Source: Eledone cirrhosa (taxonomy: Eukaryota). Taken from it: a stretch of DNA of 64,000 nt. Under the pieces are notes generated by a model. It ran no database searches. It had not been told where the DNA came from and was given only the letters and a program-made list of their open reading frames with translations. Where the stretch lies: the NCBI GenBank assembly GCA_964016885.1, contig OZ024740.1, positions 64,604,001 to 64,668,000 on the forward strand. The letters are read 5' to 3'. Shown here piece by piece: positions 9,582 through 56,583 of this stretch. The translations under genes and the position numbers were made by a program. The first letter of the stretch is position 1. Each line of letters starts with the position of its first letter.

Positions 9582-9845
9582 GTTTGTGTATGTATATATG
9601 TCTATAACTATTGCACTGTGTGAAATCTACTAGCTATTGAGCATCGATTCGAATAGTTTAACGGCCAATATGCAGATCAATAAAGAGGCGTAGGCTTGAA
9701 GCGCAAATTTGAGAAGCGTATGACAAAGAATATATATACATATATGTATATATATGTATATATATATACACATATATATATATATATCCGAACAGTTCGA
9801 ATCTAGCTGTCGAGGCTGTCGGGGCCCTGAGTCTTTTCATATATA

Positions 9846-11066
9846 TACCACGATGGATCTTACTGGATCAACAAGAAATCTCAGACCCCATTTGACGTTA
9901 GCATGGGAGCGAGTGACTCGGCTGAAATTAGCGACCTTGTGGGCTTGTACATCCTACATCAACTGAATAACCTCTTTACTGGCCTAACCGGAGGTTTATA
10001 CCGAGACGACGGCCTCTTCACCCTGCAGAGAGTTAACCCCAGAACTACCGATGGGTTTCGGAAAAACTTAAGCTCTTTCTTCTCTAGTCTAGGATTTAGT
10101 ATAACTATCGAATCTAATTTGACTAGGACCAACTTCTTAGATGTCACTTTCGACCTAGATACTTCCCTCTATTACCCGTACCACAAACCTAACGAGTCCC
10201 TTAGATATATTAACGTTAATTTAAACCATCCCCAAAACATCACTGATAACCTAGTAAAAAGCGTCTCTATTAGAATATCTGGCCTCTCCGCCAACAAAGA
10301 TATTTTTAACGCATCTGCCTCCTACTACAATGACGCCCTCGCCCGCAGCGGATTTAAAGAAAAGATTACATACCTAGAAACCACCGCAAGATTGCAGAGG
10401 AGGAATAGACATAGGCAGATTAGCTGGTACAACCCTCCCTTCAATAGAGAGGTCTCTACACCGATAGCTAGGATTTTCTTCACTTTGCTGAAATTACGCT
10501 TCCCCATACAACATAGGTACCACACCATCTTTAATAAGAACACAATAAGACTCTCCTACTCCACCACACCTAACCTAGCTAGGAATATAGCCAACCACAA
10601 TTCTAAAATATTAAATAAGCTAACCACCTCCGAACCCAATCCCCGGACTGGGGCGCTGTGTAATTGCTTAAATAAGGAAGCATGCCCACTTGAAAACAAA
10701 TGCCTCACAAATGATATCGTATACAAATGCGATGTCATCTCAGGCACCGATGATTGCAAAACAACTTACATCGGCATGACCTCCAACAATTTTAAGACCC
10801 GTTGGTAAGCCCATACCCACTCCTTCAGAAGACCGGACGAATCAAACCAGACAACACTCGCCTCCTATGTTTGGGACCTCAAAAGGAACTCAACCCCCTT
10901 CACGCTTAAATGGAAAATACTCCAGAAAGCGCGCTCTTACAACGGAGGGCACAAGGGCTGCGACCTTTGTATCTCAGAGAGCTACGAAATTTTATTCGCC
11001 AAGGGCCCGCTACTGAACAAACTCTCTGAACACTGCCCGAACTGCATGCACTTTAAAACACTTTAA
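9846..11066 (+). pseudogene. Penelope-like element 1 (Naiad-like): 5'-truncated RT + GIY-YIG endonuclease, one in-frame stop
   Basis: PFDVSMGASDSAEISDLVGLY, GLYRDDGL, NFLDVTFDL, CNCLNKEACPLENKC linker, IVY...YIGMT..FKTRW. After the TAA at 10806-10808 the frame continues (TTLASYVWDLK..CDLCISE..CMHFKTL*) to 11066. Confidence 0.92.

Positions 11067-12069: not shown

Positions 12070-12136
<67 letters not shown>
11270..12136. repeat. Compound (TA)n/(TG)n microsatellite
   Basis: Direct reading. Confidence 0.97.
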
Positions 12137-12137
<1 letters not shown>

Positions 12138-13793
12138 AATGAGAGGTAGAGAAATTGTTTTAGCGAGAAGCTAATAGTATTCTATAACATATATGCGACT
12201 ATAACGTCAAGATGGGAAAAGTAGTTAACGTAAGATTTAGGAAAAATAATTCAAACTCATCTCAAAAGAGAATCAGGATACAAATTCATCCACAGAATTT
12301 AGTGAAATCCAAGGAAAAATCAATAGACCTTTAGCTCATAATAAAATAAAGTTTAAAACACTTATCCTTCAATTTGGAATAACATCAAATGCTCTGTATA
12401 GTCTTAAAAGACTATTTCATGAAAACTTTTAGTGGAGATGGTCACGGTTGGATTTCAATCGTCAGCAGAGCTCAACAGAAACCAGGGCTCTCACAGTATT
12501 ATAATCCGAAAAAGGGAATTCTAAAACTGGCTAGTTCGCCATCATGTGTTATTATGAAAAAGCACATTAGAAAAAACGGGGCTAGTGACGTCAGGATGAA
12601 AGTGAATGTTTATTTACAAGAAATAGCAGTCAAATACATTCTGAAAAAAACTCTACAAAAGGAGTTCAGCAAATAGCAATAATTATCACAGTTTTTATTA
12701 AAAAAAAAAAAAAAATTTTTTTAAACCGGGATTAGTCACAGATAGTTTAAGCACTCTAGGAAAAGAATCCGAGTATAAGTATAAATGAGAGGCATAGAGA
12801 TTGTTTTAGCGAGAAGCTAACAGTATTATATAACATATATGCGACTATAACGTCAAGATGGGAAAAGTAGTTAACGTAAGATTTAGGAAAAATAATTCAA
12901 ACTCATCTCAAAAGAGAATCAGGATACAAATTCACAGAATTTAGTGAAATCCAGGGAAAAATCAATAGACCTTTAACTCATAATAAAATAAAGTTTAAAA
13001 CACTTATCCTTCAATTTGGAATAACATCATATGCTCTGTATAGTCTTAAAAGACTATTTCATGAAAACTTTCAGTGGAGATGGTCACGGTTGGATTTCAA
13101 TCGTCAGCAGAGCTCAACAGAAAGCAGGGCTCTCACAGTATTATAATCCGAAAAAGGGGATTCTAAAACTGGCTAGTTCGCCATCATGTGTTATTATGAA
13201 AAAGCACATGAGGAAAAACGGGGCTAGTGACGTCAGGATGAAAGTGAATGTTTATTTACAAGAAATAGCAGTTAAATACATTCTGAAAAAAACTCTACAA
13301 AAGGAGTTCAGCAAATAGCAATAATTATCACAGTTTTTATTAAAAAAAAAAAAAATTTTTTTTAAACCGGGATTAGTCACAGATAGTTTAAGCACTCTAG
13401 GAAAAGAATCCGAGTATAAGTATAAATGAGAGGTATAGAGATTGTTTTAGCGAGAAGCTAATAGTATTCTATAACATATATGTGACTATAACGTCAAGAT
13501 GGGAAAAGTAGCTAACGTAAGATTTAGGAAAAATAATTCAAACTCATCTCAAAAGAGAATCAGGATACAAATTCACAGAATTTAGTGAAATCCAGGGAAA
13601 AATCAATAGACCTTTAACTCATAATAAAATAAAGTTTAAAACACTTATCCTTCAATTTGGAATAACATCAAATGCTCTGTATAGTCTTAAAAGACTATTT
13701 CATGAAAACTTTCAGAGGAGATGGTCACGGTTGGATTTCAATCGTCAGCAGAGCTCAACAGAAACCAGGGCTCTCACAGTATTATAATCCGAA
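12137..13793 (-). repeat. Tandem array H1: ~2.6 x ~641-bp units, one HHR per unit
   Basis: Units start at ~12137, 12783 and 13423. Flanked by (TA)n on the left and (TG)n/(TA)n on the right. Confidence 0.95.
12391..12471 (-). ncRNA. Type I hammerhead ribozyme H1 (also 13033-13113, 13674-13754)
   Basis: Minus strand: GCTCTG-CTGACGA-TTGAAA..TTTCAT-GAAA-TAGTC-ttttaa-GACTA-TA-CAGAGC. All three stems pair. Confidence 0.88.
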
Positions 13794-13830
13794 ATGTATG
13801 TGTGTGTGTGTATATACATGTGTGTGTGTG

Positions 13831-13879
<49 letters not shown>

Positions 13880-13881
<2 letters not shown>

Positions 13882-15048
13882 GAAAAAAGTTTGTCCTTCA
13901 TCAGTGATCTTCCAACCATCATAGGCATTTCATCGCTTTAAAGACCATATACCTCCGGTTGGTGCGAGCAACGGCTAAAAAAAGTCGTTGGGACACGAGG
14001 GTAAACACACGTAAAAGTCGTTGGGACGCGAGGGTAAACAAACAAAATGGTGAAGCAACAGAAAGTGAGGAAGAAGGAGACAAGTCCCAAATTTCTATGA
14101 ATTTAAATTCGGTGAAATCGTGAACGAGAGAATAAAGACCATCAAACCTGGTTGAAATGTGAGCATGAAGGAATTTCGCACAGGTCTAACGGGAGGAAGA
14201 AGGGGTCTGGTCTGCGAATTCGGTAAACATAAGTTCTGTGAAATCGTAGACGAGAGAGAGAAAAAATTCTGACCAGCTTGGCCGAGCGTTCGAGAGAAAA
14301 GAATTGCGCACTGGTCAAATGGGAAGAAAAAGGAGGAGGAGAGGTAGTGACAGAGAATGAGTGAGTGAAGGGTAAGGAAGAGGCTAACAGAGAAAGAGAG
14401 ACTGCTAGAAACGTTAAAGATACATAGAACGAAAAAGTCGGGTAGCAGCAGAGGAAAAAAATGTGTAAATATGATAATAAGGGCGCTGCGGAGTTGCAAA
14501 TGGGTTACATATGAAAAAAGTTTGTCCTTCATCAGTGATCTTCCAACCATCATAGGCATTTCATCGCTTTAAAGACCATATACCTCCGGTTGGTGCGAGC
14601 AACGGCTAAAAAAAGTCGTTGGGACACGTAAATATAGGGGACGCGAGGGTAAACAAACAAAATGGTGAAGCAACAGAAAGTGAGGAAGAAGGAGACAAGT
14701 CCCAAATTTCTATGAATTTAAATTCGGTGAAATCGTGAACGAGAGAATAAATACCATCAAACCTGGTTGAAATGTGAGCAAGGGAGGAATTTCGCACAGG
14801 TCTAACGGGAGGAGGAAGGGGTCTGGTCTGCGAATTCGGTAAACATAAGTTCTGTGAAATCGTAGACGAGAGAGAAAAAATTCCGACCAGCTTGGCCGAG
14901 TGTGCGAGAGAAAAAATTGCGCACAGATCAAACGGGAAGAAAGAGGAGGAGGAGAGGTAGTGACAGAGAATGAGTGAGTGAAGGGTGAGGAAGAGGCTAA
15001 CAGAGAGAGAGACTGCTAGAAAGGGTAAAGATACATAGAACGAAAAAG
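13880..15048 (-). repeat. Tandem duplication H2 (~631-bp unit, ~1.8 copies); relative at 46224-46772
   Basis: ATGAAAAAAGTTTGTCCTTCATCAG at 13880 and 14511; flanked by (TA)n. Confidence 0.9.
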
Positions 15049-16268: not shown

Positions 16269-16319
16269 AGATTCCTGATGATTTCTAATGAATGAAACAG
16301 TTCTAGTCCTGTAGAATCT
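16269..16319 (+). ncRNA. Type I hammerhead H3 (second copy on minus strand at 48926-48976)
   Basis: AGATTC-CTGATGA-TTTCtaatGAAT-GAAA-CAGttctagtcCTG-TA-GAATCT, inside a dispersed repeat (15810-16350 / 48895-49275). Confidence 0.88.
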
Positions 16320-16387: not shown

Positions 16388-16390
<3 letters not shown>

Positions 16391-16480
16391 CACAGAGTGT
16401 GTGGTAAGATACCAGGTGGACCATAACGCACCAGAGTACTCAATACGTAGGGTAGTAGAGTGGGTAATAGGATCAGCTAG
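16388..16480 (+). repeat. Short TA-adjacent repeat; copy at 56103-56190
   Basis: TGTGGTAAG..ACCAGGTGGACCATAACGCACCA.AGTACTCAATAC.TAGGGTAGTAGAGTGGGTAATAGGA directly after (TA)n in both copies. Confidence 0.85.
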
Positions 16481-17712: not shown

Positions 17713-18110
17713 AAACATATAATGTTACATAGTAATGTAAAACGTGATAAATAATCAATAATATAACATAGAGCAATATAGTATACGTACAACTACATAT
17801 GTGGCACATTGTATGTGGATGCATTTTAATGTGTAAAGGTGTAAAGTGTGATTTACAATGTTATCAATTAAGTTTTATATATTATATACATTATGATATA
17901 TATATATATATATTTCCTTGGAGATACGAAATATCTATACATATTGTAAAAAGCTATGCTTGAAGCGAAATCCTATTTCTTTTTTATTATAAGTTGAGCC
18001 AACTTATGCAGCTTCATATGCAAATGAGATTAATCACCTCATTTACACAGACGAGAAAAGTATATTTTCTCGCCTGTCTTCTAGTCCAGTAGTCGCAAGC
18101 GGTGGGAGGG

Positions 18111-18154
18111 ACCGTCCTGACGAAGGCCAGTTAAGCCTGAAATGCATAGACGGT
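18111..18154 (+). ncRNA. Minimal type I hammerhead H4 (minus copy 19779-19822; deleted copy ~20077-20107)
   Basis: ACCGTC-CTGACGA-AGGCcagttaaGCCT-GAAA-TGCA-TA-GACGGT. Palindromic stem III. Lies in a ~329-bp repeat unit (17915-18310, 19625-20320). Confidence 0.9.
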
Positions 18155-18305
18155 TGTCCCCCTTGCTTCTGCTGGACATCACCAGAGGGCGTTAGCCCCC
18201 CCCCCCCGGTGGTTGCATAGCTACGGCTTCCTAAAACACTATCTCCTTGGAATTACGAAATGTTTATACATATTGTATACGCTATGCTTGAAGCGAAATC
18301 CTATT

Positions 18306-18348
<43 letters not shown>

Positions 18349-18384
18349 GATATATATACATTATGACATATATGTATATATATG

Positions 18385-18448
<64 letters not shown>

Positions 18449-18508
18449 GATATATATACATTATGACATATATGTATATATATGCTTATATATATATGTA
18501 TATATATG

Positions 18509-18544
<36 letters not shown>

Positions 18545-18576
18545 GATATATATATATACATATATACATTATGACA

Positions 18577-18611
<35 letters not shown>

Positions 18612-18613
<2 letters not shown>

Positions 18614-19607
18614 ACTGAACAAAAAAGTAAAACGAACACAGAGATATGCATGTATGCGTTCAAATCGTAATGGACCAGAAACGCTAAGGTGAAAAAAATA
18701 CTAACAAGACAATAGGGTTTGCTAGACTCAATTTAAGAATAAATCAAGAAAAATAAATACAAACCAGTATTGTGGTAACTACCATTCACCCGGACAGTTT
18801 TTGATGGAACCGTTTCGCAATATTATTTGCGAAGAGGTATATCAAATTCTTGGCTCATCAGCGGGTGAAGAATTAGTTTCCTGATCACTTCTAAATAAAA
18901 TAAAGAACTGGATAGTGTGTGTATATGTAGTGCACATGGTTTCCAAACTTAGCGCGTCGCGCAGACTCACGTCACTAAAAATAGAGGCCGGCTCTACACG
19001 ACAATTGAAATAGCTCTACGAATTAACGGAGCCGAATGTACTGTAATGAGACTATTTTGAGTTTCTAACTCAATACATGCTTTTGATATATTAGGCTCCG
19101 TTAATTCGTAGAGCTATTTCAATTGTCGTGTAGACTCGGCCTCTATCTTTAGTGACGTGAGTCTGCGCGACGCGCTAAGTTTGGAAACCATGTGCGTTAC
19201 ATATACACACACTATCCAGTTCTTTATTTTATTTAGAAGTGATCAGGAAACTAATTCTTCACCCGCTGATGAGCCAAGAATTTGATATACCCCTTCGCAA
19301 ATAATATTGCGAAACGGTTCCATCAAAAAACGTCCGGGTGAATGGTAGTTACCACAATACTGGTTTGTATTTATTTTTCTTGATTTATTCTTAAATTGAG
19401 TCTAACAAACCCTATTGATTTGTTAGTATTTTTTTTCACCTTAGAGTTACTGGTCCATTACAATTTGAACGCATACATGCATATATCTGTGATCATTTTA
19501 CTTTTTTGTTCAGTTATACTATATGGATCGGAAAAACCTTTTTCCTAGAGCTAATTTTACTGTAATGAGACTATTTTGAGTATCTAACTCAATACATGCT
19601 TTTGATA
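18612..19607. repeat. Fold-back element H5: ~420-bp inverted arms; plus copy is a 519-bp unit plus ~50-nt redundancy
   Basis: 18612-19034 is the reverse complement of 19094-19517. The central spacer (from 19039) recurs at 19558-19607. Confidence 0.9.
18785..18869 (-). ncRNA. Type I hammerhead H5 (plus copy 19258-19342; mutated relative 22672-22754, minus)
   Basis: TTCACCCG-CTGATGA-GC..GC-GAAA-CGGTTccatcaaaAACTG-TC-CGGGTGAA with a perfect 8-bp stem I. Confidence 0.88.
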
Positions 19608-20524
19608 TATATATATATATATATGAAATAAGATTGTGCTTCAAGCATAGCTTTATACAATATGTATAAAAATTTCGTATTTTTAAAGAAATACGGTTTT
19701 AGGAAGCCGTGGCTATGTAAACACTGGGGAGAGAGGGCTAACGCCCTCTGGTGATGTCCAGCAGAAGCAATGGGCACAACCGTCTATGCATTTCAGGTTT
19801 GACTGGCCTTCGTCAGGACGATTCTCCTCCCCGCTTGCGACTGCTGGACTTGAAAGCAGCCGAGAATATATAGTTTTCTCGTCTGGTCAAATGACGTAAT
19901 TAATCTCATTTGCATATGAAGCTGCATTAGTTGGCTCAACTTATAATAGAAAAGAATAAGATTTCGCTTCAAGCATAGCTTTATACAATATGTATAGAAA
20001 GTTCGTACTTCTAAAGAAATACGGCTTTAGGAAGCCGTTGCTATGTAAGCACCGGGGGCTAACGTCCTCTGGCAGTGTCCTGACGAAGGCCAGTCAAGCA
20101 TAGACGGTTGTCTCCCTAACTTTTGCTGGACACCACCAGAGGTCGTTAGCCCTCCGGTGATTACATAGCTACGGCTTCCTAAAACTGTATTTCTTTAGAA
20201 ATACGAAATTTCTATACGTATTGTATAAAGCTATGCTTGAAGCGAAATCTTATTTCTTTTCTATTATAAGTTGAGCCAACTTATGCAGCGTCATAAGAAA
20301 ATGAGATTAATCACCTTATTTGCGAAAGCCAGATGGTTTTTTATATAGTGTCAAATCTCTTTCGTTACACATTCTGAAATTTCTAATAAATTGAAGTGAA
20401 AACGGGAGGTGCGTGTGTTTTTATTGGCAGCATGACCCTCCCAAAGTATAACAATATCTGTTTCAACACATGTTTTCAGATAAGACATCTTGCAAAACAA
20501 ATTCAAAAACGAAGTACGCCCCCC

Positions 20525-25796: not shown

Positions 25797-27091
25797 TTAT
25801 GGAGGATAAGTATCTGAAAGTGTGTTAAGTTTAAATGAGCTGGAAAGCAGGTGTGATTTCATGTGTGGGCAACTGGTGAAAATTTCTGTCTTTGTGTTCA
25901 GGCAGGTCTTTGGTGATTTTAGATTTTGCAATATCCAATATTTTTCATTTATGCAGAGCGTGCATTTTCTTGTTCCTCTAGCATATTTTTAAGATTGGTT
26001 CAAAATTGACCAGTCTAATTTATATTGGATGCCTTGGTCTTTCAAATCCCAAATTCTGCTAGCCAGAGCTGTTGTAAATCTTTTTTCTGGATGTCAAAAG
26101 GATGCGACATGTGAGTAATAACGCGTTTTGAATTTGTCTTGCGTCATACCCACATATCGTTCACTGGTGGCTGGATGGTTGTTGCTGATGGTTGTCACTT
26201 TAGCCGCATATACAATGGCTTTGGTGTTGCATTTACCTTGTAATGGGCATTCACTTTTGATTCTACAGGAGCAAGTTTGATTTTCTCTAGCTGATAATTT
26301 GTTGAGGATATAGGACTTAATAGGGGAACCGCAGGAATAGCTAATTTTAACACAGTTTCTGTTAAAGATCTTATAGTATCTATGTGTTCTAGGGAAATGT
26401 TTATCTAGGAGATCAAGGAATTTTTTGCCTACATTAGTTTTAACTGCTAGAGAGTAGGGGGGTGTGAACCAGATTATTTTTCTTTTCCTATTTTTATGTT
26501 TAATAGAGTTAGTATAGTTAGGTATGTATTTAATCGGTTCGCTAAAACCGCTATTTAGGAGGGCTTTATTATAGTAGGGGGATGCCTTATTAAAAATAGC
26601 TTCTGAGGAAGAGAGGGTGGAGATCCTACGGCTAATATTAGGGATAAGGTTTTTAAAAACTATAGGTGGATGGCAAGATCCTTTATTTATATATTTTAAG
26701 TTTTCATTAGGTTTATGGTATGGTTTATAAGAAGCAGTAGGCACATCTAGGTTTATATCTAGGAAATCTACGTTGGAAAGGTTAGTGTCAATAGTAATTT
26801 TAAGATTAAAACTAGCGAAGGTTTTTATTAAGTCTTTCCTTAATCTATCTAAGTTATGACCTATGGTGGTATGGGAAAGTATTAGACCATCGTCGCGATA
26901 AAGCCCCAAAATATGGTTAGGAAATTTTTCTTTAAGTGTATGTAAGAGGAATAGGCCGACCAGATCACAAACATCGGCACTGTCATAAGAGCCCATTGAG
27001 ACATCGAATGGGTTCTCTGGGTTAGATATTTTTACCCAAGTGTCATTATCATTAAAATTAAAAAGTAGAGTGTTCCTAGCATGCAAGATGA
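25797..27091 (-). pseudogene. Penelope-like element 2 (Naiad-like): 5'-truncated RT + GIY-YIG, two in-frame stops
   Basis: PFDVSMGSYDSADVCDLVGLF, GLYRDDGL, CSCRIKSECPLQGKC, IVY...YVGMT..FKTRY. The frame continues past TGA (26094) and one TAA through CTLCINEK..SCPHM to the stop at 25797. Confidence 0.92.
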
Positions 27092-27093
27092 CA

Positions 27094-27194
<101 letters not shown>

Positions 27195-27346
27195 TTAATA
27201 TGTGTAGAAGTAAACGCAGTAAACCCGTATCTAAAATCTAGGGTAGATTACACCACAAATGTTATATATCATTCAACCTGAATCATATGGGAAGTTACAA
27301 GATTTCTTACAAGATTTCTCATACATACCATATCAATAACCATTTC

Positions 27347-27438
27347 ATCTCCCGGACAGACTAAAGATTTAATCTGTTTCGCCCTGAATGAATCGTGTTT
27401 GTAACAAGTAATCCGTAGGTATTTCGTCAGCGAGAGAT
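27347..27438 (-). ncRNA. Type I hammerhead H11
   Basis: ATCTCTCG-CTGACGA-..-GAAA-CAGATTAAAtcTTTAGTCTG-TC-CGGGAGAT. Stem II is weak. Confidence 0.78.
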
Positions 27439-27582
27439 AAGACTAAATGTTACATAACACCTATAACAATAAACTCACTAAAGTTTACACCTCGTGCGTT
27501 GAAAGTCATATGCGGTGCGAGTGGTTATGCTAGAAATAATAGCCTATTTACACTCATTTTTATAAGCTGAACAGATATATAT

Positions 27583-29171
27583 ATCACGATACATTAACGG
27601 AGCCATAGACGCTCGTCATTCCCTGTAAATAATGTGCTCAAAGGAGAGGAAATCCTGAGCTCTTTAAAATACAATATGTTGAAAAGGTAACACACTAGAG
27701 AGAGATACAGTTGGCTATCAATAAAACAGGGAAAAACCACCAGTGTATGAAATCTATAACCTATGAAAGGCAGAGTATAAACACGATAATTAAAAATATA
27801 AATGAAAGCGTAAATAAATACCTCTATAACTATATAACACACGTACAAATCCAAAGTGATCTGTTTGGCCAGTAAGGTGTTGACAGAAATGAAATAACCC
27901 CCGTTCATCAGCGTGTGTAAGGCTATACATTTCAGACAACACTAAGAGAATTTATAAAGCGACCGTCCAGCTACACGTGGGAGAGATAAGTCACAGCGTG
28001 TTTAAGGGTAGTGAACCAGTGGCCTCTGAGGGACGAGCTGCTAGAAGGGCAGCCCAAAACCACTCAGAGAAGTGTGCTCAACCAAACAGAGAGAGAGAGG
28101 AAAGACTGTTATAAGGAGCGAAATATCACGATACATTAACGGAGCCATAGACCCTCAACATTCCTTGTAAATAATGTGCTCAAAGCAGAAGAAATCCTGA
28201 GCTCTTTAAAATACAATATGTTGAAAAGGTAACACACTAGAAAGAGATACAGTGCGCTATCAATAAAACTGGGAAAAACCACCAGTGTATGGAATCTATA
28301 ACCTATGAAAGGCAAAGTATACACACGATAACTAAAAATATAAATTAAAGCGTAATTAAATACCTCTATAACTATATAACACACTTACAAATCCACATGC
28401 TGATGAACCGTGGTTATTTCATTTCTGTCAACAACTTACTGGCGAAACAGATCACTTTGGATTTGTACGTGTGATATATAGTTATAGAGATATTTATTTA
28501 CGCTTTAATTTATATTTTTAATTATCGTGTGTATACTCTGCCTTTCATAGGTTATAGATTCCATACACTGGTGGTTTTTTCCCAGTTTTATTGATAGCGC
28601 ACTGTATCTCACTCTAGTGTGTTACCTTTTCAACATATTGTATTTTAAAGAGCTCAGGATTTCCTCTCCTTTGCGCACATTATTTACAGGGAATGACGAG
28701 GGTCTATGGCTCCGTTAATGTATCGTGATATTTCGCTCCTTATAACAGTCTGTCCTCTCTCTCTGTTTGGTTGAGCACATTTCTCTGAGTGGTTTTGGGC
28801 TGTCCTTTCTAGTAGCTCGTCCCTCAGAGGCCACTGGTTCACTGCCCTTAAACACGGTGTGAGTTCTCTCTCCCACGTGTAGCTGGACGGTCGCTTTAAA
28901 AATTCTCTTAGTGTTGTCTGAAATAGCCTTACACACGCTGATGAACCGGGGTTATTTCATTTCTGGCAAAAACTTACTGGCGAAACAGATCACTTTGGAT
29001 TTGTACGTGTGTTATATAGTTATAGAGGTATTTATTTACGTTTTAATTTATATTTTTAATTATCGTATGTATACTCTGCCTTTCATAGGTTATAGATTCC
29101 ATACACTGGTGGTTTTTCCCTGTTTTATTGATAGCGCACTGTATCTCTCTCTAGTGTGTTACCTTTTCAAC

Positions 29172-29177
<6 letters not shown>
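27583..29177. repeat. Inverted tandem array H12 (~540-bp unit; ~1.5 copies minus, then ~1.5 copies plus)
   Basis: Period 542 bp (27594 vs 28136) and 538 bp (28400 vs 28938). Orientation flips at ~28394. Confidence 0.92.
28931..29012 (+). ncRNA. Type I hammerhead H12 (also 28394-28473 plus; 27837-27918 minus with GAAA>CAAA)
   Basis: ACACACG-CTGATGA-aCCGG..CTGGc-GAAA-CAGATCactttgGATTTG-TA-CGTGTGT. Confidence 0.87.
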
Positions 29178-29207
<30 letters not shown>

Positions 29208-35231: not shown

Positions 35232-38200
35232 CTACAGGATGGTATACAGAGAAGGCCCATTTACACGAGCCATTCTCGCCACTATCACCCACCTTTCATA
35301 AAACTGCCTGTGGCCAAGCACCTCTCTCTCCATTCTTATCCTTCTTCCGAAGTGATATCGGAAGAAGTAGACCAGACTATGGCCAGAGAGGAAGTTGCCT
35401 GACCTCAGACCTTTCAATCGTGTCCACCAAACAACCTCTTTCAACATGGCTATTACGCACAGAAAAACCGCCTTTGCTTCCTTTGTGAAGAGGGGAGGCG
35501 GTTTGATTGTCATCACGGACTCGGCGGTCAATTTAATCGGCGCCACCCGCGACAGCAGTTGTTCGGCGTAGCCCCACAGATCAACCACGCCCGGACATTG
35601 CACCAATGCGTGCGCAACGGTTTCTTCGTGACGCACGCATCTAGGGCAAATCTTTTTTGAGGGATCCCTGCCCGGGCGCCCGTGTCTGTAGAGCCTCTCT
35701 CGAACGGGTAGAGCCCCCCGGTAGCACTGCCAGGCCAGTGACTTCTGGAAGTTGTCCATTGGTCCTGGGCCGAAAGTCCTATCGAACAGGCTGGCCAGTT
35801 CGTCTTCTTCCATGTCCAGCGACGCTCCAAGGGTGTCATCGCCCCTGCTAGCCACCAGCCCTCTATAGAATGATGAGGTGGATTCTCCACCGATGGCCTG
35901 GCCCGCTTGCCAGAGAGCCCTGAGCACCTGAGCACACTCAGTGTGCCAGTCTCCCAGTTTTCCGGATCTTTGCTTGACCCAGGACTGTAGCTCGGTGAGC
36001 GAGACGAGTCTCGGAAAGGCTCGTTTCACGAACGGAGCCCACACCGGTTGACCAGTGAGGAATACCTGTAAGTGCCGTAGCCTTAATGCGTGCCTACGAA
36101 TCATCAACCACGGCATCCCCAGCCCTTCTTTCGAAGGTTGTTGGCAGCAGATGGATCTTCTCACCATAGGAGGGCGCTTCTTCCAAAGAAATTGGAAGAG
36201 CATGCGTTCCATGGTGGTGAGTGTTTCCTTAGGGCAAGGCACGACAGTCAGGCGGTAGTAAGTGACGGACGCTATGTAAATGTTCGCCACCTCCGCCCGG
36301 CCTTTTAGGGACAGCTTACACTTGGTCCATTTCTGGGTTAGTGCAAACACCTTGTTCGTAACCTCGTTCCAGTTCTTTTCCACCTGGAGGTCCGGTCCAA
36401 ACCAGACCCCAAGCAACTTTACCGGGCCCTCCGTCCAGTGTCCGACGACACCGTCAGGAGGCATCGGTCTGCCTCTCCACGTTCCGAGTTGCAGCCCGAT
36501 GGATTTTTCCCGGTTCAGTTTCGCTCCTGACAACCTTTCGTACTCCTCCAGTAAGGTACCGATCGCCTCGATCTCCGAGTCGGTCGATACCATTACTGTT
36601 ACGTCATCGGCGTAGGCCGACACCGCTTTGCTCAATCCTGTTTCCAGGGGGATACCCTGCAACAACTCCAACTTCCTCAGTAAAGGCTCGAGAGTCAATA
36701 CGTACAGAAGGGAGGAGAGAGGGCACCCCTGTCGAATGGATCGTGTGATTTCGAACGGCTTCGAAAGGTAGCCGTTCACCTTGATCCTAGAACAGATGTG
36801 GTTGCTATGTAAGGCAGTGATCCAGCCTCTGAAAACAGGACCGAACCCAGCCGCCGCTAGCACCGCATCCAGGTAACCATGGTCGACCCTATCGAAGGCC
36901 TTAGACTGATCCAAGTTGATCAGGGCCCCACCAAAGCCGGGTTTGTTGCCAACCCTCTCTATGATGTATCGCATGAGGTGGAGGTTATCGTGAATGGACC
37001 TGGATGGGATAGCACATGTCTGCGCATCTCCCACCAGGCCACCCACGACAAGCGCCAACCTCTTTGCTAACACCTTGGCCAAAATCTTTAACTCTGTGTT
37101 TAGCAGGGTTATGGGCCGAAAATTATTTATACTATCTCCCTTGTTCTCGTCCTTCCTCACCAGCGTGACTACGCCCTTAGCTACTGAACAAGGAATTCTC
37201 CCGTTCTGCTGCCAATTGCAGTAGACCGCTTCGAGGAGTTCGGAGAAGAAGACCGGCATTGCTAAATAAAGTTCGTAAGGTATACCATTGAGACCTGGAG
37301 ATTTGCGTCTGCTGCATTGGCTCAACGCATCTCCGATCTCATCAGTCGAGATTGGTCCCTCGCAGGACTCTGCCTCTTCGCTCGAGAGACGCGGCAGGCC
37401 GTCGAGGTATGGACCGAAATCCACGCCCCCGCCCGGACCCCCGCCTCCCCCGAACAATCGGGCAAAGTGTCTTTGAAAGGCCTCGTACATCTGCTTAGGC
37501 TCCCGGATCACCCGTCCATCTTCGTCTTGCAACGACCGGATGGTGGATCGATTTCCACTCTTAGCTTCTGTCACGCGGGCCCAGCCAACGGCTTTGGCCC
37601 CCTCATTACCTAGAGCACGTATTTTACTTCGAATGACGCAGCCTTTGTGCTTTGCATCGAAAAACTGGTTCAAGGCCGTCCTCGATGCCAGCACTCTGGC
37701 CACATCTTCGCTCTTGATTGCCTCTTCTAATTTACCTGTTAATTCTTTCTCGTTTCTATTCCTATCGGCAGCTAACATCTTGCTATAACTTATTGATTCT
37801 GTTCTAATCTCTCTTTTGAGAGATGCCCACCATCGGTTGTTGACGATTGCACCCGTCAACCTCTCCTTAACTAATCTGCTAATCCGGTTTCTGTAAGTCT
37901 CTTTTGCCGGTAAAGACAAATTAAGTTTCCAGTAACCGGGGCCCTGTTTATGTGTTTTCTCGAGATTGACTACGCAGGTCACTAATTTGTGATCCGTGTA
38001 GCCAACCGTGCGCATTTCTGGACAGCTTAATATGTCCCTATACTTACTTCTAATTAAGAATCTATCTAAGTACGATCTAGATTGACCACTGTGGTTTCTC
38101 CAAGTCCAGGTAGGCACAGTTGGAAAATCTACTCGATATCTATCGACCAAGTTAAAACGGTCGAGTAACCCCTTGAGGCTGTTACACCCCCCTCTATTAG

Positions 38201-38669
38201 GACATGCTCCTGCATAGTCCCAACGTACATCTAGGATGTCATTCCAATCCCCCGCTAGAAGCAGGGAACGCGACGTTCCCAGAAAAGTCTCCAAACGCTG
38301 GAAGAAGTCGGGCCGTTCAGCTCCGAAAGGGGAGTAGACGGCGACCAGTCTCAAGGCCGTACTTTCACTACTGCCAACGTCTAGCACCAACAAACAACCC
38401 TCCGGGTCCGAGTGCACAACCTGTACGGCAAGACCCAGGTGTTTTTGCAGCAGTACGACAACCCCACCCCCACCTCCAGGTTGACAGAGAGATGCATGCA
38501 CCTCAAAGTCATCGAAGGTGGGGGCCAGCTGCCGCACGACGCTGATTCGAGTCTCACAGATAACCATTACATTTATACTACATGACCTGAGGTCATTTAG
38601 AAGCTTTGCTTGCTTCCAAGTTGAGCCCAGGCCACGTGCATTCAAACATCCTACTCTTAACACATCCAT
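35232..38669 (-). CDS. LINE ORF2: APE endonuclease + reverse transcriptase + C-terminal zinc finger, intact, 1145 aa
   Basis: APE motifs CLNARGL, ICETR, LAGDWN, SYLDRFL, TDHK. RT motifs KSPGLNG, FRPITLLN, DQSKAFDRV, QGCPLS, YADD. C-terminal CPRC..ETVAHALVQC. Confidence 0.96.
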   Translation of the reverse strand: MDVLRVGCLNARGLGSTWKQAKLLNDLRSCSINVMVICETRISVVRQLAPTFDDFEVHASLCQPGGGGGVVVLLQKHLGLAVQVVHSDPEGCLLVLDVGSSESTALRLVAVYSPFGAERPDFFQRLETFLGTSRSLLLAGDWNDILDVRWDYAGACPNRGGCNSLKGLLDRFNLVDRYRVDFPTVPTWTWRNHSGQSRSYLDRFLIRSKYRDILSCPEMRTVGYTDHKLVTCVVNLEKTHKQGPGYWKLNLSLPAKETYRNRISRLVKERLTGAIVNNRWWASLKREIRTESISYSKMLAADRNRNEKELTGKLEEAIKSEDVARVLASRTALNQFFDAKHKGCVIRSKIRALGNEGAKAVGWARVTEAKSGNRSTIRSLQDEDGRVIREPKQMYEAFQRHFARLFGGGGGPGGGVDFGPYLDGLPRLSSEEAESCEGPISTDEIGDALSQCSRRKSPGLNGIPYELYLAMPVFFSELLEAVYCNWQQNGRIPCSVAKGVVTLVRKDENKGDSINNFRPITLLNTELKILAKVLAKRLALVVGGLVGDAQTCAIPSRSIHDNLHLMRYIIERVGNKPGFGGALINLDQSKAFDRVDHGYLDAVLAAAGFGPVFRGWITALHSNHICSRIKVNGYLSKPFEITRSIRQGCPLSSLLYVLTLEPLLRKLELLQGIPLETGLSKAVSAYADDVTVMVSTDSEIEAIGTLLEEYERLSGAKLNREKSIGLQLGTWRGRPMPPDGVVGHWTEGPVKLLGVWFGPDLQVEKNWNEVTNKVFALTQKWTKCKLSLKGRAEVANIYIASVTYYRLTVVPCPKETLTTMERMLFQFLWKKRPPMVRRSICCQQPSKEGLGMPWLMIRRHALRLRHLQVFLTGQPVWAPFVKRAFPRLVSLTELQSWVKQRSGKLGDWHTECAQVLRALWQAGQAIGGESTSSFYRGLVASRGDDTLGASLDMEEDELASLFDRTFGPGPMDNFQKSLAWQCYRGALPVRERLYRHGRPGRDPSKKICPRCVRHEETVAHALVQCPGVVDLWGYAEQLLSRVAPIKLTAESVMTIKPPPLFTKEAKAVFLCVIAMLKEVVWWTRLKGLRSGNFLSGHSLVYFFRYHFGRRIRMEREVLGHRQFYERWVIVARMARVNGPSLYTIL

Positions 38670-53320: not shown

Positions 53321-53322
<2 letters not shown>

Positions 53323-56041
53323 CACCTTTCTAGTGGGTCCGGGTATGATTTTACATTCATTTAAATTATTGACGTATTGTTTTATTGATTTTTTTATCTG
53401 TTTGGCCCGAATCTTCCTTTATCGATTTTAAATCGTATGGTTGATTGTAGACTTGTTCTATATGTGACGGTATTTTAACGATAGTTATAGCTCTGATTCA
53501 TCTGAATTATTGAGCCCTCTGCCGCTCATATCGAATTTCGTTTATCGTGAACTCGTGCGCCGATTTTTCGATACTCGATCTTTCTAATATATTTAGCTCT
53601 GGACTTAGCTATCCACCAGTTAATTTTATTGCTCATTTTTTGTCGATTCTATTGAGTGATGAATAGCTTTTGTTTTATTTTAACATGTCTATTGAGCACT
53701 CTAATTCGATATGTGTATTTCCACACTCACTCGAATTGTTTTCGCGGATATAGGGGTCATCTCCCTTGTCTAATGCCATGTGCGTTTTTCACCGCTAGTT
53801 GACTCCTCTGCCGCCAGGAAAAAACTCGTTGACAACGTAAACTCCGTTCCACTTATTCTAGTAGGCTTCTATATTTATATGTGAGCTGATAGAGTACAGT
53901 CTAAGGATTTACAGAAACCCATGAAGCTAGATTTAACACCTTTCTAGTGGGTCCGGGTATGATTTTACATTCATTTAAATTATTGACGTATTGTTTTATT
54001 GATATTTTTTATCTGTTTGGCCCGAATCTTCCTTTATCGATTTTAAATCGTATGGTTGATTGTAGACTTGTTCTATATGTGACGGTATTTTAACGATAGT
54101 TATAGCTCTGATTCATCTGAATTATTGAGCCCTCTGCCGCTCATATCGAATTTCGTTTATCGTGAACTCGTGCGCCGATTTTTCGATACTCGATCTTTCT
54201 AATATATTTAGCTCTGGACTTAGCTATCCACCAGTTAATTTTATTGCTCATTTTTTGTCGATTCTATTGAGTGATGAATAGCTTTTGTTTTATTTTAACA
54301 TGTCTATTGAGCACTCTAATTCGATATGTGTATTTCCACATTCACTCGAATTGTTTTCGCGGATATAGGGGTCATCTCCCTTGTCTAATGCCATGTGCGT
54401 TTTTCACCGCTAGTTGACTCCTCTGCCGCCAGGAAAAAACTCGTTGACAACGTAAACTCCGTTCCACTTATTCTAGTAGGCTTCTATATTTATATGTGAG
54501 CTGATAGAGTACAGTCTAAGGATTTACAGAAACCCATGAAGCTAGATTTAACACCTTTCTAGTGGGTCCGGGTATGATTTTACATTCATTTAAATTATTG
54601 ACGTATTGTTTTATTGAAATTTTTTTATCTGTTTGGCCCGAATCTTCCTTTATCGATTTTAAATCGTATGGTTGATTGTAGACTTGTTCTATATGTGACG
54701 GTATTTTAACGATAGTTATAGCTCTGATTCATCTGAATTATTGAGCCCTCTGCCGCTCATATCGAATTTCGTTTATCGTGAACTCGTGCGCCGATTTTTC
54801 GATACTCGATCTTTCTAATATATTTAGCTCTGGACTTAGCTATCCACCAGTTAATTTTATTGCTCATTTTTTGTCGATTCTATTGAGTGATGAATAGCTT
54901 TTGTTTTATTTTAACATGTCTATTGAGCACTCTAATTCGATATGTGTATTTCCACATTCACTCGAATTGTTTTCGCGGATATAGGGGTCATCTCCCTTGT
55001 CTAATGCCATGTGCGTTTTTCACCGCTAGTTGACTCCTCTGCCGCCAGGAAAAAACTCGTTGACAACGTAAACTCCGTTCCACTTATTCTAGTAGGCTTC
55101 TATATTTATATGTGAGCTGATAGAGTACAGTCTAAGGATTTACAGAAACCCATGAAGCTAGATTTAACACCTTTCTAGTGGGTCCGGGTATGATTTTACA
55201 TTCATTTAAATTATTGACGTATTGTTTTATTGATATTTTTTATCTGTTTGGCCCGAATCTTCCTTTATCGATTTTAAATCGTATGGTTGATTGTAGACTT
55301 GTTCTATATGTGACGGTATTTTAACGATAGTTATAGCTCTGATTCATCTGAATTATTGAGCCCTCTGCCGCTCATATCGAATTTCGTTTATCGTGAACTC
55401 GTGCGCCGATTTTTCGATACTCGATCTTTCTAATATATTTAGCTCTGGACTTAGCTATCCACCAGTTAATTTTATTGCTCATTTTTTGTCGATTCTATTG
55501 AGTGATGAATAGCTTTTGTTTTATTTTAACATGTCTATTGAGCACTCTAATTCGATATGTGTATTTCCACATTCACTCGAATTGTTTTCGCGGATATAGG
55601 GGTCATCTCCCTTGTCTAATGCCATGTGCGTTTTTCACCGCTAGTTGACTCCTCTGCCGCCAGGAAAAAACTCGTTGACAACGTAAACTCCGTTCCACTT
55701 ATTCTAGTAGGCTTCTATATTTATATGTGAGCTGATAGAGTACAGTCTAAGGATTTACAGAAACCCATGAAGCTAGATTTAACACCTTTCTAGTGGGTCC
55801 GGGTATGATTTTACATTCATTTAAATTATTGACGTATTGTTTTATTGATATTTTTTATCTGTTTGGCCCGAATCTTCCTTTATCGATTTTAAATCGTATG
55901 GTTGATTGTAGACTTGTTCTATATGTGACGGTATTTTAACGATAGTTATAGCTCTGATTCATCTGAATTATTGAGCCCTCTGCCGCTCATATCGAATTTC
56001 GTTTATCGTGAACTCGTGCGCCGATTTTTCGATACTCGATC

Positions 56042-56052
<11 letters not shown>
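53321..56052 (+). repeat. Highly homogeneous tandem array H17 (~615-bp unit, ~4.4 copies) between two (TA)n tracts
   Basis: AACACCTTTCTAGTGGGTCC at 53321, 53935, 54550, 55166 and 55781. Confidence 0.97.
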
Positions 56053-56105
<53 letters not shown>

Positions 56106-56583
56106 CGAAGGAAATGTGGTAAGGAACCAGGTGGACCATAACGCACCAAAGTACTCAATACTTAGGGTAGTAGAGTGGGTAATAGGAACCATAACGCACC
56201 ACAATTAGTCAAGAATTAGCCGTCGAAACGGCTTGAGCTCAGCCGTCGGGGTCTTATTGGTTCCTATATATATATATATATGTACGCCAATACTCATCGT
56301 TTTCCATTTCTCCGAGGGTTCTTAACCCCACTATCAGGCTAAATAATTTCTTTAATTTCTTTAGTCAAAATACAGCGATAACTTATATTTCTAATATATA
56401 TATATATACAAATATAATTTCAGCGAGATCGTATTTCGGCGGGGGCCAAACACAAATAGAAACGCAATCTTCGAGATATGCAGCAACCGCTCAATGGACT
56501 AAAGGAAAACCAGAGCAATTAACAGACGTTATAAAGGCCAGATAAAATGAACACAGTGGTCGTGTAGCCATCAGCCACCGGAG

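Follow-up and report, generated by a model that had tools for sequence, protein, structure and literature searches.

A complete hammerhead ribozyme pattern of the U3-A8 variant at each junction of a young tandem array, a probable retrozyme insertion, in Eledone cirrhosa

Introduction

Retrozymes of the animal non-long-terminal-repeat (non-LTR) kind are described from coral, mussel and axolotl (PMC7229834), and retrozymes are reported to be tied to the terminal repeats of Penelope elements (Li et al. 2026, bioRxiv 10.64898/2026.07.22.740005). Penelope elements of the Hydra clade are described as inserting in (TA)n and carrying hammerhead ribozymes, with an Octopus family given in the supplement, and the Naiads as likewise targeting (TA)n (PMC8557442). 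Copying of RNA circles by Penelope enzymes has been proposed in print, in text that advances the idea rather than demonstrating it. In this study we analyzed a tandem array that lies between (TA)n tracts in the genome of Eledone cirrhosa (assembly GCA_964016885.1, contig OZ024740.1, positions 64,604,001 to 64,668,000, forward strand). The window is this whole stretch of 64,000 nucleotides, and coordinates are counted from its first letter.

The hammerhead core has a natural variant, the U3-A8 covariation, which was shown to be active (PMC3088659). The same source reports the U.U mismatch at positions 10.1/11.1 as natural and as the best mispair, and estimates that about 40% of a natural hammerhead collection likely use a pseudoknot between arm I and arm II. 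About 1,300 U3-A8 motifs are reported from Schistosoma, where they were found after the variant had appeared in a Penelope element (PMC4209133, the one paper that our literature search for this variant listed). Our literature search found no report on cephalopod retrozymes and no mutational study of core insertions. A sequence-only reading of the window had proposed that the junctions of the array carry only an atypical hammerhead-like motif, with a core strand, CTGATAGA, that has an extra base, and had offered three explanations: a new active core variant, a different processing route, or the amplification of a dead copy.

Results

A complete type I hammerhead pattern of the known U3-A8 variant is present at every junction of the array (Table 1). 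We looked on either strand of the circularised unit for a core strand, a GAAA and a UH cleavage site held together by all three stems, and the single match was the U3-A8 core, which lies 57 bases upstream of the look-alike strand CTGATAGA. The shuffle-test pattern, with stems of at least 5, 5 and 4 bp and an arm II of up to 150 nt, appeared in 0 of 5000 shuffles. The A15.1-U16.1 pair is present (A53917-T53952) and, as modelled, stem III is long enough for action as a monomer. The sequence-only reading had quoted the letters at 53886-53953 correctly and was right to see a hammerhead-derived junction with good GAAA, stem III and GUC site. Its atypical motif is not the only one at the junction, however, where a complete U3-A8 hammerhead uses the core strand at 53829-53835, and in place of a stem I of one pair, CGGGT pairs with ACTCG over 5 bp. 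At 10.1/11.1, usually a G-C pair (numbering of PMC3088659), there is a C.A mismatch, which is A.A in two of the public runs described below. The position is also unpaired in the window hammerheads at 16275, 24548, 28938, 13107 and 50897.

The unconstrained minimum-free-energy (MFE) structure of 53805-53985 is the U3-A8 hammerhead (-35.9 kcal/mol, ensemble share 0.35), and a separate fold of 53815-53965 gave the same hammerhead as both MFE and centroid. The model of the sequence-only reading for the same region reaches -19.3 kcal/mol, a cost of 16.6 kcal/mol, with an ensemble share of about 1e-12. In the predicted structure CTGATAGA pairs with 53855-53865 inside the arm II hairpin, with pairing values of 0.97-1.0 at 53890-53895. 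The internal loop of this hairpin, AGUA (53860-53863) opposite GAU (53888-53890), resembles a bulged-G (sarcin-ricin-like) motif.

We consider it extremely unlikely that a new insertion variant works with CTGATAGA as its core, or that CTGATAGA is the core of a dead copy that has been amplified. An insertion found naturally after A6 is reported to have low but detectable activity (PMC3088659), the string CTGAN(N)GA occurred in just 1.1% of shuffled inserts, and the region 53870-53938 holds only 1 of 40 variable places, which gives p 0.046 for a fixed window. With a movable window the same region is ordinary (p 0.84), and we dropped the idea that it is specially conserved. Besides the energetic cost, the model needs one more extra base ahead of G12 and leaves stem I with a single pair, and in viral contigs scanned for the variant none of 83 distinct pattern matches showed all three stems, with 4 showing two (120 of about 150 loci). 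A metagenome scan returned 4 loci, none resembling the unit. The relaxed motif of the sequence-only reading was found in 12 of 3000 shuffled units. With the U3-A8 hammerhead intact, no different processing route is needed, and amplification of a dead copy fits poorly with a U3-A8 core that is intact here and is the family form in those four of eight aligned runs that cover it.

We also folded CTGATAGA as an insertion variant or with G8 and A9 exchanged, as well as an alternative GUA site at 53957-53959, and dropped these readings. Their folds were all some 10 kcal/mol less favourable than the free fold, and at the H17 of the alternative site one divergent relative carries G. Hairpin-, twister- and HDV-like readings were dismissed by eye against their consensus. 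The possibility of another ribozyme class, raised earlier, was not borne out in Rfam, where searches of 53700-54500 and 53780-53990 at E up to 10, of limited sensitivity, gave no twister, hairpin, pistol, hatchet or HDV-like family.

In register, CTGATAGA and the true core strand agree at 8 of 12 letters (p 0.08). Together with the rarity of the string in shuffled inserts and the few changes in the region, this weakly supports the possibility of a retired or duplicated core. It is doubtful, but conceivable, that the core strand was replaced, the upstream U3-A8 strand having taken over and CTGATAGA having been left in the arm II hairpin as its retired or duplicate counterpart. Were that so, two 5' core strands might compete for one 3' half, with the same TAC, GAAA and GUC site, an arrangement to which we give little credence. 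Under such a replacement, CTGATAGA locked in its hairpin could serve as a switch in folding or as a place where the helper enzyme docks.

Part of the unit was present in 18 of the 24 public runs examined (designated here by X and a number); none of these 18 is recorded as RNA, and they are uninformative on expression. Eight runs were aligned to the unit, seven with the unit and one of raw reads; ten of the 18, including all five below a share of 0.19, are outside the alignment. The variants given here are those in the 40 listed of 57 rows. Differences are complete for record 1 of X1, record 1 of X10 and records 24-27 of X6, and one is missing for record 19 of X4. A head-to-tail (tandem or circular) joint is found in 5 of the 8 aligned runs, with several variants per run; judging from these alignments, the unit is a multicopy family that is tandem in other copies. 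X12 and X13 cover fragments only (53965-54195 and 53973-54123), and X19 gave no aligned reads, a blank that counts neither way. The core strand is covered by X1, X4, X6 and X10, and U3-A8 is the family form in these four runs. The listed core changes fall on the free positions N7 and 10.1. N7 reads C in X1, T in X10 and X6, and G in X4 and X6, 10.1 reads C or A, and a loose end in X6 directly spells the G7/A10.1 form. No other change in stem I, the core, GAAA or the cut site was found among the listed rows for these four runs. The core looks constrained across relatives, and a variable N7 beside fixed catalytic positions fits selection on chemistry.

The same variation bears on the suggestion that the hammerhead pattern is intact yet dispensable, being kept as a fold that the helper enzyme recognises, alone or through adjoining hairpins. 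The array begins within loop III and ends where a hairpin has its foot, which would agree with this, and Naiads are reported to spread without canonical hammerheads (PMC8557442). We nevertheless find it very unlikely, as variation at N7 with fixed catalytic positions is a prediction of selection on chemistry.

Among the listed rows there are 15 changes across 53808-53977, of which nine are unpaired, four keep a pair one-sidedly and two break a pair, at 53898 (arm II hairpin) and 53962 (outside the ribozyme). Three changes in the arm II hairpin (53851-53900) preserve pairs and one breaks a pair, and two one-base insertions widen the stem II bulge. Changes at 53962 in three runs, and a loose end of divergent sequence in X11, disrupt the distal TTATAT/GTATGA helix that the sequence-only reading attached to its stem I. 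A fifth stem III pair had been read as A-U; the change 53948 T>C, in three runs, fits a G53926.U wobble turned into G-C. The relatives thus do keep a conserved motif, a standard compensated core, but it is located elsewhere than the strand to which that reading had pointed.

Three sets of runs that share an organism code, X10 and X19, X4 with X21 and X22, and X9 with X24, are strongly discordant for the unit (depth 50-260 in X10 and no reads in 1.9 Gb of X19; shares 0.63 versus 0.00). The discordance could reflect RNA versus DNA, polymorphism or trace DNA.

The array occupies 53322-56053 of the plus strand, with its 3' boundary at 56047-56053, and consists of 4.43 near-identical tandem units of about 615 bp between pure (TA)n tracts, as described earlier. 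Four alignment columns vary between units, three of them in one T-run, and a comparison of four pairs of full units gave 0-1 substitutions per pair. The array is non-coding (longest ATG open reading frame [ORF] 47 aa; GC 36%), and it is a single arm, with no second copy or inverted partner within the 64-kb window. The letters at 53869 and 54220 differ from those of every covering run yet are common to the array units, suggesting that one template served for all units. The array was said to be the youngest of the window. It is young, but not alone in this: the array at 49.6-51 kb shows 0 substitutions in 351 non-TA bases (first two units), a tie with the 0-1 in 614-615 found here. The arrays at 12 kb and 14 kb, with 15/641 and 20/528 differences, are older.

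The array 5' end falls within the loop that closes the stem III extension and lies 17-19 nt ahead of a cleavage-site equivalent, which agrees with the earlier statement that the array starts inside loop III. Since neither end of the array is the cut site, the template must have been continuous across the cut site. A target-site duplication is unreadable, as both flanks are pure (TA)n and the overlaps are 2 and 6 bases. A loose end of X6 running into (AT)n at 54207 corresponds to the unit position of the array's own 3' end; it is 16 letters long and may or may not come from the same locus. The hairpin at 54200-54246 is weak (z -1.5).

Table 1. Features of the array and of the predicted ribozyme at its junctions
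Feature	Position	Strand	Remarks
Core strand TTGACAA (U3 U4 G5 A6 N7 A8 A9)	53829-53835	+	N7 = 53833, here C
Stem I 5' strand ACTCG	53824-53828	+	pairs with CGGGT 53954-53958; 5 bp (4 Watson-Crick, 1 G.U)
Arm II, 78 nt	53836-53913	+	C.A mismatch at 10.1/11.1, then stem, internal loop, hairpin
Arm II stem GTAAA-C-TCC / GGA-TTTAC			8 bp, one bulge; then 5x4 internal loop
Arm II long hairpin, 50 nt	53851-53900	+	holds CTGATAGA in paired state
CTGATAGA, core look-alike	53886-53893	+	predicted paired, not catalytic strand
G12 A13 A14 A15.1 (GAAA)	53914-53917	+	
Stem III ACCC/GGGT	53917-53952	+	4 bp with 5-nt bulge, then GCTAGA/TCTAGT hairpin, 11-nt loop
C17 and stem I 3' strand CGGGT	53953-53958	+	predicted cut after 53953 (GUC)
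Second complete ribozyme copy	54439-54573	+	core 54444; predicted cut after 54568
Third complete ribozyme copy	55055-55189	+	core 55060; predicted cut after 55184
Fourth complete ribozyme copy	55670-55804	+	core 55675; predicted cut after 55799
GGAA, candidate pseudoknot strand	53817-53820	+	4 bp with TTCC 53847-53850 (putative stem I-arm II contact), spotted by eye
Unit starts	53322, 53936, 54551, 55167, 55782	+	614, 615, 616, 615 bp, and 271 bp partial
Left pure (TA)n target tract	53274-53321		48 bases; 2-base TA overlap with array 5' end
Right pure (AT)n target tract	56048-56104		
Array 5' end	53322-53343	+	ribozyme 3' part alone: loop III to stem I 3' strand
Array 3' end	56046-56053	+	6-base ATATAT overlap with TA tract; 248-254 bases beyond last cut site
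TAATATAT, internal copy of array 3' end point	54200-54207	+	5' foot of hairpin 54200-54246; candidate priming site
CCCGAATCTTCC	54021-54032	+	retained in loose ends of divergent relatives; able to pair with ribozyme CGGG and GGAA

Remnants of a Penelope-type reverse transcriptase (RT) with a C-terminal endonuclease are found in the window at 26094-27131 (minus strand) and 9831-10808 (plus strand); they show a YRDD motif and the Hydra-clade linker CxCX5C. The Atlas neighbours of the ORF at 26094-27131 carry GIY-YIG and RT families, and by eye the window ORFs resemble Hydra-1_Obim; a Pfam search of both ORFs gave no match. About 300 nt 5' of a Hydra-type ORF, at 27335-27442 (minus strand; listed at 27430), there is a long-armed hammerhead whose letters around the core and site are the same as those of the array ribozyme, except that it is C3-G8; its stem II looks decayed. 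Elements that bear hammerheads lie back to back in inverted copies, an arrangement described for Penelope insertions, at 27581-29180, 17911-20321 and 18620-19520.

Outside the array the descriptor gave 17 more hammerhead matches, from about ten unrelated repeat families, most of them adjoining (TA)n. The array at 49556-51264 (minus strand) has three hammerhead units with TA tracts of variable length inside each unit and nearly identical non-TA parts. The array at 12128-13794 (minus strand) has 2.6 units of about 645 bp and a hammerhead with a 40-nt arm II and an 8-bp stem III; its 3' end overlaps a TA tract by a few bases, like that of the array at 53322. A two-unit array between TA tracts at 13875-15048 gave no hammerhead with either descriptor, and a long-armed or permuted form is possible there. 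At 53128-53215 (plus strand), about 65 nt ahead of the array's left TA tract, there is a hammerhead-like motif with a 6-bp stem II, a palindromic stem III and a decayed stem I. On the other side, 56105-56187, to the right of the array's TA tract, matches 16390-16472, to the right of another (92% over 125 bases including the tract), which shows that TA tracts are used repeatedly. The window also holds an open ORF2 of 1156 aa from a long interspersed nuclear element (LINE) at 35232-38702 (minus strand), with endonuclease, RT and zinc finger, and an ORF1-like frame upstream of it at 39048-40136 (minus strand).

Rfam at gathering level gave no match in the whole window, including at the 17 descriptor matches outside the array, which are C3-G8. 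At E up to 10, searches of 53700-54500 and 53780-53990 gave chance matches only and no ribozyme family, with limited sensitivity. Our first descriptor, with an arm II cap below 78 nt, overlooked the U3-A8 core.

Discussion

In pursuance of the pattern found at the junctions, we propose that the array is probably one young retrozyme insertion, derived from an RNA that cut itself, became a circle and was copied for several rounds into (TA)n by a Penelope-type enzyme. Read-through transcription would be followed by one cut per unit after GUC, on the model of the coral, mussel and axolotl retrozymes (PMC7229834), and a host RtcB-type ligase would join the monomer ends to give a circle, as published retrozymes suggest. 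Judging from the array ends, a GIY-YIG nick in (TA)n might then provide a 3' end that anneals to the internal AUAUAU of the unit, 248-254 nt past the cut. Reverse transcription would run through five cut-site equivalents and end within loop III, 17-19 nt past the fifth, where 2 bases would join the copy to the other TA end. The likeliest helper is a Hydra-clade element, with a Naiad as the alternative. The TA microhomology at both ends, the identical 3' end in X6 and the Hydra-type remnants in the window make the copying of a circle by a borrowed enzyme likely.

Several observations weigh against this proposal. The array ends would look alike for a circle, for an uncut multimer and for unequal crossing-over at a later time. 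The unit has no homology elsewhere in the window, the Penelope remnants included, and no sequence link to any one Penelope family was found there. Cleavage should be slowed by the C.A mismatch at 10.1/11.1, U.U being the reported best mispair. The local fold energy of 53815-53965 is ordinary (z -0.85); once the entire upstream monomer is included, the hammerhead fold is 3.6-6.0 kcal/mol less favourable than the ensemble at 37 C, and in the circular unit the gap is 5.0 kcal/mol. The candidate pseudoknot between GGAA and TTCC loses its end pair through a variant at 53820, with no compensatory change, and no two-sided compensatory change was found anywhere among the listed rows, beyond which lie a further 17. 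Finally, the alignment of the most divergent contig (record 3 of X10; 13 differences in 92 bases) ends at 53902, short of the core.

The energy gap and the mismatch would also suit a different course, in which a Penelope-type enzyme copied an uncut multimeric parent transcript without any circle, the ribozyme being intact and the cleavage of whole units slow. The hammerhead fold is disfavoured in the whole-monomer context, the mismatch should act in the same direction, and any template that runs unbroken through the cut site would suit the ends. We think this course unlikely, though it deserves to be taken seriously. With about 130 nt of upstream sequence, the hammerhead share is near 0.5 until the chain extends about 40 nt past the site, so that local co-transcriptional folding would give about half of the molecules the hammerhead fold; the core looks constrained across relatives; and published animal retrozymes are mostly circles, as far as PMC7229834 describes them. 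The gap in the whole monomer suggests that whole-unit activity may depend on folding kinetics and on tertiary contacts, which the model ignores. We dropped the notion of a dedicated off-switch in the circle, as the 5.0 kcal/mol gap matches that of a shuffled remainder (mean 5.2, sd 2.3; at least as large in 25 of 53). The whole-circle stability (z -3.4 for the plus and -1.9 for the minus strand, 60 shuffles) includes the helices of the ribozyme itself and was set aside.

The number of units might also have arisen at the DNA level, with an insertion of about 1.4 units grown to 4.4 by unequal crossing-over. The 271-bp terminal repeat permits such growth with the ends unchanged, the near-identical units fit it, and Li et al. 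(2026) are reported to favour local amplification for tandem growth. A 1.4-mer, however, already crosses the cut site twice, so that a continuous RNA template is still required; in addition, the flanking TA tracts remain pure and the tandem joint is general in the family. We therefore hold growth by crossing-over to be quite unlikely and retain the copying of a circle as the probable origin of the array.

The claim that a young element carries a broken or new catalytic core falls away. In its place, the array offers a clean single-arm insertion with fixed microhomologous ends, a good substrate for asking whether Penelope enzymes copy RNA circles, and its U3-A8 hammerhead, with a 78-nt arm and predicted competence as a monomer, would be an easy construct for examining how much cargo arm II tolerates. 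There is also a lesson for the counting of hammerheads. The core-only searches of Craig 2021 are described with a spacer of 7-17 nt (PMC8557442). Long insertions in arm II escape descriptors with short spacers, so that counts of 'ribozyme-less' elements may be too low.

We compared the array with the closest described systems, as far as the cited sources describe them. Within the animal non-LTR retrozymes (PMC7229834; Li et al. 2026) the array is a new family member whose core variant is already published and whose arm II is unusually long, long-arm variants not having been searched separately. It shares with them head-to-tail units that are non-coding and hold a single type I hammerhead, a GC content below 50%, the lack of visible LTR features, the presence of Penelope elements in the same genome and a small number of units per array (75% of families have at most 7 units in Li et al.). 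The unit of 615 bp is longer than the 170-400 nt of the cloned coral, mussel and axolotl RNAs and falls inside the 51-972 bp of Li et al. The array differs from those retrozymes in its U3-A8 core, 78-nt arm II, stem III that is long rather than of 1-2 bp, and (TA)n target, and in being known from DNA alone.

With the Hydra clade (PMC8557442) the array has in common the (TA)n target, the hammerheads, the fixed-site copy ends (as in Hydra-1_Obim) and the partial tandem layout. Unlike these elements it encodes no protein and is at most a passenger. Three short motifs gave no match of the array family to the supplement of that study, with 2 of 15 places of the shortest motif checked. Like the type-SGC hammerheads (Eckert 2023, PMC10085705), the array ribozyme is missed by standard descriptors, whereas its strand order (core, GAAA, cut site) is that of an ordinary type I. 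The permuted type-SGC form was rejected on this non-permuted order at the junction, no separate search for permuted orders having been made.

A close match of the ribozyme is the U3-A8 variant (PMC3088659, PMC4209133), with which it shares the replacement of C3/G8 by U3/A8, an otherwise standard core, a mismatch at 10.1/11.1 and a possible pseudoknot. The mismatch is C.A (or A.A) in the array and U.U in the reported natural case. The Schistosoma Penelope hammerheads are described as minimal and are thought to act as dimers (PMC4209133), in contrast to that of the array, with its full stem III and long arm II.

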